Part shown: positions 25,771 to 60,352 of the stretch, piece after piece | How positions within the stretch are numbered: position 1 is the first letter of the stretch | Layout: every line of letters begins with the position of its first letter | Assembly: GCF_003018255.1 (NCBI RefSeq) | Contig: NZ_CP027440.1 | Reading direction: 5' to 3' (one strand) | DNA length: 64,000 nucleotides | Origin: Escherichia coli | GTDB taxonomy: Bacteria > Pseudomonadota > Gammaproteobacteria > Enterobacterales > Enterobacteriaceae | Notes under the pieces: model-generated | What the model was told of the DNA's origin: nothing | The model's database searches: none | What the model saw: the letters and a program-made list of their open reading frames with translations, nothing else | Made by a program: the position numbers and the translations under genes

Positions 25771-26373
25771 TTACTCAGATTCCCCGGCTTCGCTTACCAC
25801 TTTGCTAAATATCATCTGCAGCGCGGTGAGATCCCCCATTGCCCCACTCTGATTTGCCTGATTCCAGGCCTCTTTTTCGATACCCTGCCAGCTCAGTTGG
25901 TAGCCCGCATGAATCGCCAGCTGCTCGAAGAAGATCCGCTGTGCCAGTCCGCTTCCCACACGGAAGGGATGCAGCACGTTGATTTCACAATAGTAATGCG
26001 CCAGCCGCTCGACGAACTTCGCTTTCTCCAGGCCAACCAGATAACCTTCTTCCTCCAGATCCTGCATCAGGGCATTGCCCTCTTTTTCGATATAAGCAAA
26101 GTGGCAGAACGGCGTATCACCCTGATAAATATCAACTTCACGCAGTTGCCCCGCCCAGTCGAAAATATCCTGATACAGCTGGCGATGGATAGTGCGCAAA
26201 TGCGGTAAACCGCGCACCAGCGGACCAAGCTCAATGGTCGCAGCACGTAGCGCCGTCATTTCGTAAGCGGCCTGTTCCAGCCGCTGTTGCTGGCGGATGT
26301 TCAGCCGGTTACGCATGATATCAAGGCCAGGATAAAGATACGGATCGCGCCCTTCGCCGAATTTATCGCTCAT
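25771..26373 (-). CDS. fic: Fic-domain protein
   Basis: 200-aa with [12 protein letters not shown] at residues 135-146; start ATG overlaps yhfG stop. Confidence 0.9.
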
Positions 26374-26530
26374 AGTGCCTCCTCAGCTCTTCAAGGCGCG
26401 CTAAAGCCTCTGCGGCAGTAAGAGTGACTAAAGGCATCTCGACGCCTTCAAGACGGCGACTGGCCTGGAAATTACGATTACGCTGAAGCTCCCAGAGACG
26501 GGACTTTTGCTTATCGGTGAGTTTCTTCAC
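26363..26530 (-). CDS. yhfG: Small protein YhfG (candidate Fic antitoxin-like partner)
   Basis: Absent from the ORF track: GTG start at 26528-26530, 55 codons ([55 protein letters not shown]), TAA at 26363-26365; overlaps fic start by 11 nt. Confidence 0.75.
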
Positions 26531-26634: not shown

Positions 26635-27216
<582 letters not shown>

Positions 27217-27339
27217 TTAACAAACAGAGCAGAAAAAAAGCAAGTGAAGAGATTCTAAATAGCCTTCAAGAACAAGGCCATCCCTTTACCTAATTTTACG
27301 TATCTGAAATATATGTAACCTGACGATCACTTTTTATTC

Positions 27340-27355
27340 TGTGATCAAAATCACC
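27340..27355. promoter_or_regulatory. CRP-like site in ppiA/tsgA divergent intergenic region
   Basis: tgtga-tcaaaa-tcacc fits TGTGA-N6-TCACA at 9 of 10 positions; second copy of aaaatcacct at 27407-27416. Confidence 0.45.
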
Positions 27356-27477
27356 TCTTAAAATGCAATTTAGCAACCGATTGCAATAAAACATTTAATC
27401 AGATCACAAAATCACCTAAAATCGCCCGCTCGCGGCATAGCCCGCTATGCCATTTTATTTTTGAACGCAGGCCAATC

Positions 27478-28659
27478 ATGACTAACAGCAATCGCATCAA
27501 GCTCACATGGATTAGCTTTCTCTCCTACGCACTGACTGGTGCGTTGGTTATTGTCACCGGGATGGTGATGGGAAATATCGCCGATTATTTCAATCTGCCT
27601 GTTTCCAGTATGAGTAACACCTTCACCTTCCTCAACGCCGGCATTTTAATCTCTATCTTCCTCAACGCCTGGCTGATGGAAATCGTCCCGTTGAAAACGC
27701 AGTTACGTTTTGGCTTTCTCCTGATGGTGCTGGCGGTTGCCGGTTTGATGTTCAGCCACAGCCTGGCGCTGTTCTCGGCGGCGATGTTCATTCTCGGAGT
27801 GGTCAGCGGCATCACCATGTCGATTGGTACATTCCTGATAACACAAATGTATGAAGGGCGTCAGCGCGGTTCCCGCCTGTTATTTACCGACTCCTTCTTC
27901 AGTATGGCCGGGATGATTTTCCCAATGATCGCCGCGTTTCTACTGGCGCGCAGCATTGAGTGGTACTGGGTTTATGCCTGCATCGGGTTGGTGTATGTCG
28001 CTATTTTTATTCTGACCTTCGGCTGTGAGTTCCCGGCGCTGGGCAAACATGCGCCAAAAACGGATGCTCCGGTAGAGAAAGAAAAGTGGGGGATCGGCGT
28101 GCTGTTTCTCTCCATTGCGGCACTGTGCTACATCCTCGGTCAGTTAGGTTTTATCTCCTGGGTGCCGGAGTATGCCAAAGGCCTGGGCATGAGCCTGAAC
28201 GACGCGGGCACGCTGGTGAGTAACTTCTGGATGTCATATATGGTCGGCATGTGGGCGTTCAGCTTTATTCTTCGCTTCTTTGATTTGCAACGTATTCTGA
28301 CCGTACTGGCTGGTCTGGCTGCGATTCTGATGTACGTCTTTAACACCGGAACACCAGCACATATGGCGTGGTCAATTCTCGCTCTGGGCTTCTTCTCCAG
28401 CGCGATCTATACCACCATCATCACCCTGGGTTCACAGCAAACCAAAGTACCGTCGCCAAAACTGGTTAACTTTGTCCTGACCTGCGGGACCATCGGTACT
28501 ATGTTGACCTTTGTGGTTACCGGCCCGATTGTTGAACATAGCGGTCCGCAGGCGGCACTGCTTACAGCAAACGGTCTGTACGCTGTCGTCTTTGTGATGT
28601 GCTTCCTGTTAGGTTTCGTCAGCCGTCACCGTCAGCATAACACCCTGACCTCTCATTAA
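27478..28659 (+). CDS. tsgA: MFS-type transporter TsgA
   Basis: 393-aa, about 12 predicted TM segments. Confidence 0.9.
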
Positions 28660-28835: not shown

Positions 28836-28848
28836 TATAAAGGTGAAT

Positions 28849-28862
28849 TTGATTTACATCAA
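28849..28862 (+). promoter_or_regulatory. FNR box of nirB promoter
   Basis: ttgat-ttac-atcaa is a perfect FNR consensus, about 59-72 bp upstream of nirB ATG. Confidence 0.7.
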
Positions 28863-28920
28863 TAAGCGGGGTTGCTGAATCGTTAAGGTAGGCGGTAATA
28901 GAAAAGAAATCGAGGCAAAA

Positions 28921-48762: not shown

Positions 48763-49162
48763 TTTTTCGGTACTACTAAGACTATTCGTTAATGATAAAC
48801 CCGCTTCGCTCAGAGAGCGCCGCAGGACATGAACTGAAACCTCATAAGATATTGCGAGAGTCAGACTGAAAATTATCTCAATACTCCAGCGGGTTTGGCA
48901 ACTGAATAAATCACCCATCCCTCTGCATATCTGGTCGCTGCAAGCGCGCTGCCTTGCTACCACCGCTCTGGCGATTAATCACCGGGTAAGATTAGCGTAA
49001 AAAAGACAGCAAAATGCCGCCTGAATGATAAATCATCATCATGGAACGCAGGCAGCGAAGAGCACCAACTCTCAAATCGGTACTCCTTGTATGCTAAATA
49101 CCTGCGCGCGTCAAATAGATGAAACACGTTCAGCGTAAAAACATTACCGCTTTTACGGCTGT

Positions 49163-50401
49163 TTACTCACTGGAAACCAGTCGTGGCGTGATAAACACCA
49201 CTAACTCGCGTCGTTCATCTTCTTTTCCGTCATGACGAAATAATTGCCCGAACCAGGGAATGTCGCCAAGCAACGGTACGCTATCCTGACCCGATTTATT
49301 TTTACGGGTAAAAATGCCGCCCAGCGCCAACGTTTCTCCGCTTTTGACCTCGACCTGCGTTTCGATCTCCTGCTTATCAATCGCCAACACTTCGCCATCG
49401 GCCTGCTGTAGCACCTGCCCCGGAACGTTCTGGCTGATGTGTAATTTCAGCCGGATGCGACCTTTTTGTAACACCGTGGGCGTAACTTCCATCCCCAGGA
49501 CGGCCTCTTTAAATTCCACCGACGTCGCGCCACTTTCCCCGCTGGAAACCTGATATGGAATTTCGCTCCCCTGTTTAATGCTGGCAGGCTGAAGATGTGA
49601 GGCCAGCAGACGCGGACTGGCGATAATATCCAGCTGCTGTTTTTGTTCGAGCGCGGAAAGCTCAAGATCCAGTAAACGTCCGTTGATGCGTCCAATGTTA
49701 AAACCGACATGCGTTGTCGCCGTCGCTACGGAGAGGTCGCTGCCAAGCGTGGTGACTTGCCCAACGCCACCAGCTTGCTGCGCATCAGCCAACGTCCATT
49801 TCACGCCTAACTCACGCAAACTTTTTTCATTAATGGTGACAATATGCGCCGACAGCTCAACCTGCCCGACCGGCAGATCCATTTGCGCTACCCACTGTTC
49901 AAGCGCGCTTAACGCCGTTTTGTTATCTCGCAGCAAAAGGCGATTGGTGCGTTTATCGACGGTCATACTCCCTTTGGCACTCAGTAGCTTCTCCCCGGCT
50001 TTCGCCAGTTCTCCCGCGTCGGCGTATTGCAGGGTTATACTGCGATTTTCCAGCGGCAGATTTGCCTGCGCCCGCGCCTGCTCCGCCTCCTGACGGGCGA
50101 TATTGTCATTCTGCCAGGCAACGGAATGCACCGAGAGAATGTTGCCCTCCTGGCGCGTTATCAATCCGGCGCTTTTCACTACAGTTTGTAGTGCCTGCTT
50201 CCAGGGAACGTCAGTTAAATGTAACGACACCGTACCGCTGACGTCTGGCGAAACCACCAGGTTCAACTTCTCCTGTTCAGCCAGCGCCTGCAACACCTGA
50301 GCTACCGGAACGTCATCCACCATCAGCGTCACTTTTTGCGGCTTTGCCGCCTGTACGCCGGGTATAAGCATCAACAGTAGTGCGGCTATCCATTGCTTCA
50401 T
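49163..50401 (-). CDS. hofQ: Secretin (PilQ/ComE-like) of DNA-uptake/type IV pilus machinery
   Basis: 412-aa with signal peptide MKQWIAALLLMLIPGVQA and C-terminal secretin domain. Confidence 0.9.
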   Translation of the reverse strand: MKQWIAALLLMLIPGVQAAKPQKVTLMVDDVPVAQVLQALAEQEKLNLVVSPDVSGTVSLHLTDVPWKQALQTVVKSAGLITRQEGNILSVHSVAWQNDNIARQEAEQARAQANLPLENRSITLQYADAGELAKAGEKLLSAKGSMTVDKRTNRLLLRDNKTALSALEQWVAQMDLPVGQVELSAHIVTINEKSLRELGVKWTLADAQQAGGVGQVTTLGSDLSVATATTHVGFNIGRINGRLLDLELSALEQKQQLDIIASPRLLASHLQPASIKQGSEIPYQVSSGESGATSVEFKEAVLGMEVTPTVLQKGRIRLKLHISQNVPGQVLQQADGEVLAIDKQEIETQVEVKSGETLALGGIFTRKNKSGQDSVPLLGDIPWFGQLFRHDGKEDERRELVVFITPRLVSSE

Positions 50402-59467: not shown

Positions 59468-60352
59468 ATGATTATGCCGCAACATGACCAATTACATCGC
59501 TATCTGTTTGAAAACTTTGCCGTTCGCGGCGAACTGGTAACCGTTTCGGAAACCCTGCAACAGATCCTTGAGAACCACGATTATCCGCAGCCCGTTAAAA
59601 ACGTGCTGGCAGAACTGCTGGTTGCGACCAGCCTGTTAACCGCTACGCTGAAGTTTGATGGTGATATCACCGTACAGCTGCAAGGCGACGGTCCGATGAA
59701 TCTGGCGGTTATTAACGGTAACAACAACCAGCAGATGCGCGGTGTGGCGCGCGTGCAGGGCGAAATTCCAGAAAATGCCGACCTGAAAACGCTGGTCGGC
59801 AATGGTTACGTGGTGATCACCATCACCCCGAGCGAAGGTGAACGCTATCAGGGCGTGGTGGGTCTGGAAGGTGATACTCTGGCGGCCTGCCTGGAAGATT
59901 ACTTTATGCGTTCTGAACAGCTGCCGACGCGCCTGTTTATTCGCACCGGCGACGTAGACGGCAAACCGGCTGCAGGCGGTATGTTGTTGCAGGTAATGCC
60001 TGCGCAAAATGCCCAGCAGGACGACTTTGACCACCTGGCGACGCTAACCGAAACCATCAAAACCGAAGAACTGTTGACCTTACCGGCAAACGAAGTGTTG
60101 TGGCGTTTGTATCACGAAGAAGAGGTGACGGTTTATGATCCGCAGGATGTGGAGTTCAAATGCACCTGCTCGCGTGAACGTTGCGCCGACGCGCTAAAAA
60201 CGCTGCCGGATGAAGAAGTCGATAGCATCCTGGCGGAAGATGGCGAAATTGACATGCATTGTGATTACTGCGGTAACCACTATCTGTTCAATGCGATGGA
60301 TATTGCTGAAATCCGCAACAACGCGTCTCCGGCAGATCCGCAAGTTCATTAA
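59468..60352 (+). CDS. hslO: Redox-regulated chaperone Hsp33
   Basis: 294-aa with C-terminal zinc centre CTCSRERC...CDYCGNHY. Confidence 0.95.

Follow-up and report, generated by a model that had tools for sequence, protein, structure and literature searches.

At deoP2, udp, nupG, cdd, tsx, rpoH, and cytR, tandem CRP sites about 52-53 bp apart flank CytR octamers of the TGCAA/TTGCA type, and repression works through anti-activation (PMC3454398). The comparative study of these promoters describes a compact arrangement: the CytR operator is a pair of octamers, with either a few bases or roughly one helical turn (10-11 bp) separating them; it lies between two CRP sites that are 10-40 bp apart; and one of these CRP sites is no more than 5 nt from an octamer (PMC3454398). 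The ppiA gene figures there as an experimentally proven member of the CytR regulon, with a CRP-CytR-CytR-CRP cassette that served as a training case for the CytR matrix (PMC3454398). The same study describes the ppiA cassette as matching one characterised in E. coli in 1994 (Norregaard-Madsen, as cited there). The title of the 1994 paper (Mol Microbiol 14:989) announces four ppiA promoters, of which three are under cAMP-CRP activation and CytR repression. The same work is cited for CytR-dependent repression of ppiA that cytidine relieves, and for cooperative binding of CytR and CRP there.

A second regulatory input comes from the Cpx system, and ppiA is a founding member of the Cpx regulon. 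The CpxR-activated genes degP, dsbA, cpxP, and ppiA have in common a GTAAA-N5-GTAAA box, located at ppiA about 80 nt upstream of the ATG, as in Yersinia. The orthologous box approximately 80 nt upstream of Yersinia ppiA has been both footprinted with CpxR~P and mutated (PMC3158067). A regulator table for ppiA lists CpxR, CRP, and CytR, together with four promoters.

The region analysed here is almost certainly the known cAMP-CRP/CytR control region of E. coli ppiA, with two CRP sites flanking a CytR site. It is the same locus as the ppiA (rot) region of Norregaard-Madsen 1994, with a CytR operator enclosed by two CRP sites and a candidate -10 element for each of four promoters. The original prediction, made from the DNA letters, had proposed several overlapping regulator sites, CRP and CytR among them; this is the published ppiA architecture. 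The four motifs it pointed out are all present where it placed them. That architecture is already known, having been described in 1994 and again by comparative genomics in 2012. It represents textbook combinatorial control (CRP activation, CytR anti-activation) and matters little for discovery. It does illustrate that a sequence-only reading can recover a real multi-regulator promoter, and the analysis separates functional motifs from incidental repeats. CRP site quality, conservation, and spacing were computed here; in vivo CRP binding and CytR/CRP control are taken from papers; and the choice of each -10 element, like the assignment of CRP sites to class I or II, is what we infer.

Within its family, the ppiA arrangement has features of its own. 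The ppiA octamers are 10 bp apart, unlike those of deoP2, which are separated by 2-3 bp. Unlike deoP2 and the other CytR-regulated promoters named above, ppiA has several overlapping promoters served by two CRP dimers, plus an extra Cpx-dependent promoter. Moreover, its product has no role in nucleoside metabolism.

The analysis covered a window of 64 kb (64,000 nucleotides) of E. coli chromosomal DNA. A 401-bp query spanning the feature matched 5425 of 5426 complete E. coli genomes, with ppiA and tsgA annotated in all, and K-12 is 99.3% identical across these 401 bp. The two flanking genes are the following.

26635-27207, minus strand: ppiA (periplasmic peptidyl-prolyl isomerase A), the regulated gene; a 190-aa ORF, named from the RefSeq annotation of the identical K-12 region.
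27478-28659, plus strand: tsgA (MFS transporter), divergent from ppiA; a 393-aa ORF, named from RefSeq annotation.

ORFs and RefSeq annotation thus bear out both the ppiA/tsgA assignment and the 270-bp divergent region given by the original prediction. This intergenic region is 31% G+C and contains three substitutions relative to K-12, one of which makes the left half of CRP site 1 consensus. The K-12 gene order is argD-pabA-fic-yhfG-ppiA on one strand and tsgA-nirB on the opposite strand. On the minus strand, yhfG (ORF 26363-26530) and fic (ORF 25771-26373) have 11 nt of reading frame in common, 26363-26373, which we take to be the tight coupling expected of the known YhfG/Fic pair. An Rfam scan of 27100-27600 returned no RNA family, even at E <= 1.

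The cassette itself comprises three elements, none with an assigned strand.

27340-27355, no strand (centre 27347.5): CRP site 1, TGTGATCAAAATCACC; top CRP weight-matrix score in the window.
27362-27387, no strand: CytR operator, formed by the inverted octamers AATGCAAT (27362-27369) and ATTGCAAT (27380-27387) with 10 bp between them; octamer-pair match.
27393-27408, no strand (centre 27400.5): CRP site 2, ATTTAATCAGATCACA; 8.1 bits, runner-up in the intergenic region.

CRP site 1 has one mismatch to TGTGA-N6-TCACA, matching at nine of the ten core positions, and so qualifies by the consensus. Consensus counting alone is unremarkable, with three one-mismatch CRP matches in 64 kb against 1.8 expected. 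A symmetric CRP weight matrix told more than the count: built from 106 published ETEC H10407 ChIP-seq CRP sites, with the ppiA site omitted, it gives CRP site 1 a score of 16.3 bits, rank 1 of the approximately 64,000 window positions, where about 0.07 would be expected per 64 kb. This score falls at the 85th percentile among the 106 ChIP-bound sites. The matrix scan that the original prediction had proposed thereby singles out the palindrome it had called near-consensus, and published binding agrees. For ppiA/tsgA, the ETEC H10407 CRP ChIP-seq gives GGTGATTTTGATCACG, which is the reverse complement of CGTGATCAAAATCACC, the K-12 allele of CRP site 1. Genomic SELEX also recovered ppiA among known CRP targets.

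The two alleles differ at the first base of the site. Position 27340 is T in the window and C in K-12, ETEC H10407, and E. albertii; the T converts the left half from CGTGA to consensus TGTGA and raises the score from 14.4 to 16.3 bits. Only 211 of 5274 matched E. coli genomes agree with the window throughout the 60 bp surrounding this position (27311-27370). The T is probably a minority allele, and it brings CRP site 1 closer to consensus. Elsewhere in the window, the CRP matrix also matches at 62356-62371, 62459-62474, and 59812-59827 (TGCGATTCCACTCACA, CGTGACAGGAATCACG, and GGTGATCACCATCACC), with 12.6-12.9 bits; two of these matches are about 100 bp apart.

CRP site 2 is much the weaker. 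It matches seven of ten consensus positions, and its left half, ATTTA, only two of five; its 8.1 bits correspond to the 10th percentile of ChIP-bound sites, with about 3.7e-4 as good expected per position. It is the sole other intergenic 16-mer to score above 3 bits. The literature searched offered no separate binding evidence for this second site. The centres of the two sites are exactly 53 bp apart. The 1994 study reportedly placed the CRP sites 53 bp apart, with one CRP complex serving a class II as well as a class I promoter, in agreement with the spacing measured here. The literature search found no text stating a 53-bp spacing at ppiA.

Between the CRP sites lies the inverted repeat TGCAAT-N10-ATTGCA (27364-27385) noted in the original prediction, a pattern that alone would be expected 0.4 times per window. 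The CytR scan proposed at the same time yields a single octamer-pair match, and it is here: AATGCAAT-N10-ATTGCAAT is the only 64-kb match to AATGCAAC-N10-GTTGCATT at three or fewer mismatches, with 3 in 16 positions. The gap between the CRP sites (27356-27392) is 37 bp, within the 10-40 bp of CytR cassettes. The right octamer ends at 27387 and CRP site 2 starts at 27393, leaving 5 nt and so falling within the 5-nt limit; the gap on the left is 6 nt. The ppiA locus shows all three cassette properties described in PMC3454398 (the CRP gap, an octamer pair with appropriate spacing, and proximity of a CRP site to an octamer), which identifies the TGCAAT inverted repeat as the CytR operator. An alternative pairing within the operator that uses the inner AGCAAC (27372-27377) is possible.

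Comparison across genera separates these elements from their surroundings. The ppiA loci were sampled as one genome per species, and the alignment comprises 18 Enterobacteriaceae from 18 genera. Roughly 24 genera retain the divergent ppiA-tsgA layout, their intergenic regions measuring about 260-285 bp. Conservation in the 18-genus alignment is as follows.

27340-27355, no strand: CRP site 1; half-sites 0.83, N6 spacer 0.54.
27393-27408, no strand: CRP site 2; half-sites 0.84-0.87, N6 spacer 0.48.
27412-27417, plus strand: TCACCT, the tail of a second decamer copy; 0.48.
27325-27330, no strand: an extra GATCAC; 0.39.
Whole intergenic region: mean 0.63.

The TCAC of CRP site 2 (27404-27407) is invariant in the 18 genera, and the alignment has essentially no indels between the two CRP sites. 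An ortholog of CRP site 1 scoring 12-21 bits is present in about 20 genera, including Erwinia and Pantoea; the original prediction had named lack of conservation in related genomes as evidence that would count against it, and the site is kept. In almost all genera, again including Erwinia and Pantoea, the best element within +40 to +69 of CRP site 1 is at +52 or +53. The CytR octamers are averagely conserved (0.5-0.6), and TG(C/T)AA keeps a constant distance from CRP site 1 in about 14 of the 18 genera. This agrees with the published observation that the ppiA CytR sites are recognisable in close relatives only (PMC3454398).

Not all of the repeated words in this region proved to be functional units. 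Three were considered.

27347-27356, plus strand: decamer AAAATCACCT, copy 1; made up of the right half of CRP site 1 and one further base.
27408-27417, plus strand: decamer AAAATCACCT, copy 2; immediately 3' of CRP site 2, with an Escherichia-specific TCACCT part.
27325-27330, no strand: extra GATCAC, the left arm of an inverted repeat; probably no separate site.

The decamer recurs as the original prediction observed, with exactly two copies in 64 kb, 61 bp apart, against a chance expectation of 0.12. As a functional unit it fails in its second copy: the tail TCACCT is conserved below the intergenic mean (0.48 against 0.63), and 27412-27417 differs in Citrobacter, Enterobacter, and other genera. 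The GATCAC...GTGATC inverted repeat is likewise present, formed by 27325-27330 and 27341-27346, with a third GATCAC at 27402-27407; its left arm is conserved still less (0.39 against 0.63) and, like that tail, is Escherichia-specific, and the repeat is not a functional unit either. Within 27320-27420, GATCAC/GTGATC occurs three times against 0.06 expected, and ATCAC/GTGAT five times against 0.28 expected. The true recurring unit is the CRP half-site ATCAC, which belongs to a second, weak CRP site with its centre 53 bp off, not 61. The decamer repeat is accounted for by two identically oriented CRP right half-sites (ATCAC) together with flanking bases specific to Escherichia, and the GATCAC words are CRP half-sites that also contain Dam (GATC) sites.

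Two further candidates for CRP sites were rejected. Decamer copy 2 was considered as the true second site, in a 61-bp register; AGATC-N6-TCACC is not CRP-like, its TCACC (27412-27416) is unconserved, and the 53-bp register is conserved. GATCAC 27325 was considered as a third site; no 16-mer covering it scores above 3 bits, and its conservation is the 0.39 given above.

Three Dam sites, at 27325, 27343, and 27402, lie within 80 bp, and all are in GATCAC/GTGATC words. Dam-dependent protein occupancy of GATC sequences upstream of ppiA has been described (PMC11741368), and the same paper, citing Hale et al., mentions that one Dam site near ppiA stays stably unmethylated. There is a Dam site within the CRP half-site TGTGATC, which ties the GATCAC motifs to this reported Dam phenomenon.

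How might the cassette control ppiA transcription? A strict sigma-70 consensus scan called no promoter in the region, so the ppiA promoters were deduced from -10-like hexamers together with CRP geometry. Such a blank is expected for activator-dependent promoters, and the -10 assignments stay provisional. Five elements on the ppiA strand enter the model.

27367-27372, minus strand: candidate -10 TAAATT for the furthest upstream of the ppiA promoters; start predicted at about 27360, placing CRP site 2 at about -40.5.
27308-27313, minus strand: candidate -10 TATATT (or the overlapping TACATA) of ppiA; start predicted at about 27301-27306, placing CRP sites 1 and 2 at about -41.5 to -46.5 and about -94.5 to -99.5, respectively.
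27293-27298, minus strand: candidate -10 TAAAAT of ppiA; predicted start about 27286, placing CRP site 1 at about -61.5, a class I position.
27252-27257, minus strand: candidate -10 TAGAAT for the promoter nearest ppiA; start predicted at about 27245, placing the CpxR box centre at about -47.
27285-27299, minus strand: CpxR box GTAAAATTAGGTAAA (GTAAA-N5-GTAAA), an exact match that precedes the ppiA ATG by 78-92 nt, where chance would give 0.07 per 64 kb.

In the geometry scan, the first two of the four hexamers stand at class II distances, the third at a class I distance, and the fourth at a distance compatible with CpxR. By position, this layout fits three CRP-dependent promoters plus one that would be independent. 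The arrangement of two CRP sites at the TATATT candidate resembles that of deoP2, where CRP binds at -40.5 and -93.5. The alignment shows a conserved ATGTAAC block by the TATATT/TACATA candidate. The block GATTCTAAA is nearly invariant, and ATTCTA is approximately 0.95 conserved; the proximal TAGAAT promoter is expected to be CRP-independent and CpxR-dependent.

The CpxR box lies beyond the coordinates of the feature under study, on its ppiA side and downstream of the CRP/CytR cassette. Both of its TTTAC pentamers are invariant in the 18 genera. The window holds one other exact GTAAA-N5-GTAAA match, GTAAACAGCCGTAAA, at 49152-49166 on the minus strand.

These elements suggest a model in which two CRP dimers, bound 53 bp apart, would activate the three upstream minus-strand promoters of ppiA, which overlap one another. 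CRP at site 2 would act as class II activator (about -40.5) of the most upstream promoter; at site 1, CRP would serve one promoter as class II activator (about -41.5) and the next from a class I position (about -61.5). CytR on 27362-27387 would contact both flanking CRP dimers cooperatively and cancel activation, its placement between the dimers allowing it to cover all three upstream promoters. Cytidine would relieve this repression. The fourth, proximal promoter (TAGAAT, 27252-27257) would be served by the CpxR box at 27285-27299.

Might other regulators, or none, account for the same palindromes? The inner 14-mer of CRP site 1, GTGATCAAAATCAC, is a predicted FNR site under an FNR ChIP-seq peak, and if 27341-27354 were an FNR site or one shared by CRP and FNR, ppiA/tsgA would be linked to anaerobiosis beside the FNR-dependent nirB operon. 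This is unlikely. The half-sites are GTGA/TCAC, of the CRP type, and not the TTGA/TCAA of FNR: the site reads GTGAT-N4-ATCAC, a departure from the FNR consensus TTGAT-N4-ATCAA. The FNR type is displayed in the same window by the nirB site TTGATTTACATCAA (28849-28862), which is the well-known FNR site of the nir promoter. The FNR ChIP-seq paper reports no FNR-dependent change in ppiA expression under its conditions, and its main table keeps FNR and CRP sites distinct, whereas the site predicted in its supplement is the CRP site 1 core. As a separate observation, TTTGATTTACATCAAT, upstream of nirB at 28848-28863, contains TTGATTTACATCAA and is the sixth-best CRP-matrix match. A second proposal concerns the centre of the cassette, where AGCAACCGATTGCA (27372-27385), a CG-centred palindrome typical of LacI-family boxes, is nested in the CytR operator and might be an operator for another member of that family, such as PurR, rather than for CytR alone. 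PurR ChIP-chip assigned a bound region to ppiA/tsgA, with no motif reported, and AGCAACCGATTGCA resembles listed PurR sites such as GCGTAACCGATTGCAT (PMC3159470); a weak in-silico GalR match has been placed in ppiA-tsgA as well. Against this, a manual count finds only 10 of 16 positions in agreement with the PurR consensus, the PurR ChIP signal (1.08) is among the weaker in its list, the inner AGCAAC is poorly conserved (0.42), and the GalR score ranks close to the lowest in its own list. This proposal is quite improbable.

The most sceptical reading takes all the motifs as functionless chance repeats in AT-rich intergenic DNA. Base composition (31% G+C), the three consensus matches where 1.8 are expected, the expectation of 0.4 TGCAAT-N10-ATTGCA per window, and the lack of conservation in two of the four repeats all lend it some colour. 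It has next to no probability for the region as a whole: CRP site 1 ranks first by weight matrix where 0.07 is expected, half-sites and spacing are conserved across genera, and both in vivo CRP binding and CRP/CytR regulation are published. For both CRP sites and the CytR operator, chance is already refuted; it is the best reading for the second decamer copy and GATCAC 27325 alone.

One further reading would add to the published CRP-CytR-CRP control of ppiA without replacing it, and it concerns the divergent gene. One candidate promoter overlaps CRP site 2.

27394-27422, plus strand: candidate tsgA sigma-70 promoter; -35 TTTAAT (27394-27399), 17-bp spacer, -10 TAAAAT (27417-27422); start predicted at about 27429.

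It is possible, though on balance doubtful, that the cassette is bidirectional and controls this divergent tsgA promoter in addition to ppiA. CRP at site 2, or the whole CRP-CytR-CRP complex (about -28.5), would then block RNA polymerase, and CRP site 1, about -81.5 from the tsgA start, would occupy a class I position. Several observations are consistent with such a promoter. TAAAAT is the most conserved intergenic hexamer (0.98), and 14 loci carry TTTAAW-N17-TAAAAT in the orthologous position. In CRP site 2, the left half ATTTA departs from consensus yet equals the consensus right half in conservation (0.84 and 0.87), which suggests a second constraint, for example a -35 element; weak as it is, CRP site 2 could be conserved for this other reason, as the candidate tsgA -35 coincides with it. 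In the SELEX study, ppiA belongs to those known targets that have a predicted CRP target as their divergent neighbour, and tsgA appears in the expression table of the FNR paper with a value of 2.38. On the other side, the strict promoter scan left the candidate uncalled, and its -35 matches only three of six positions; the literature searched yielded gene lists and unrelated TSGA10 papers, with no tsgA start site or regulator data; and CRP at -28.5 and at -81.5 would be opposite in effect, making the net outcome unpredictable. The further idea that the cassette may also govern tsgA such that the orphan MFS transporter TsgA would be an unrecognised member of the CRP/CytR nucleoside regulon seems rather unlikely. 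The PurR ChIP signal at the ppiA/tsgA region hints at a purine or nucleoside connection. If true, control of tsgA would explain why a cassette of the nucleoside-transport type precedes a prolyl isomerase gene.

Downstream of the candidate tsgA promoter, one more element stands out.

27434-27461, plus strand: hairpin GGCATAGC-CC-GCTATGCC (27434-27451) followed by ATTTTATTTTT, in the putative tsgA leader; terminator-like match.

The case for a strong conserved RNA structure in the hairpin is weak: the consensus has only four pairs, and the folding z-score of -0.7 is not unusual. Three of the four consensus pairs show compensatory changes among 17 sequences, and the hairpin might serve for attenuation or as a stem-loop that stabilises the 5' end.
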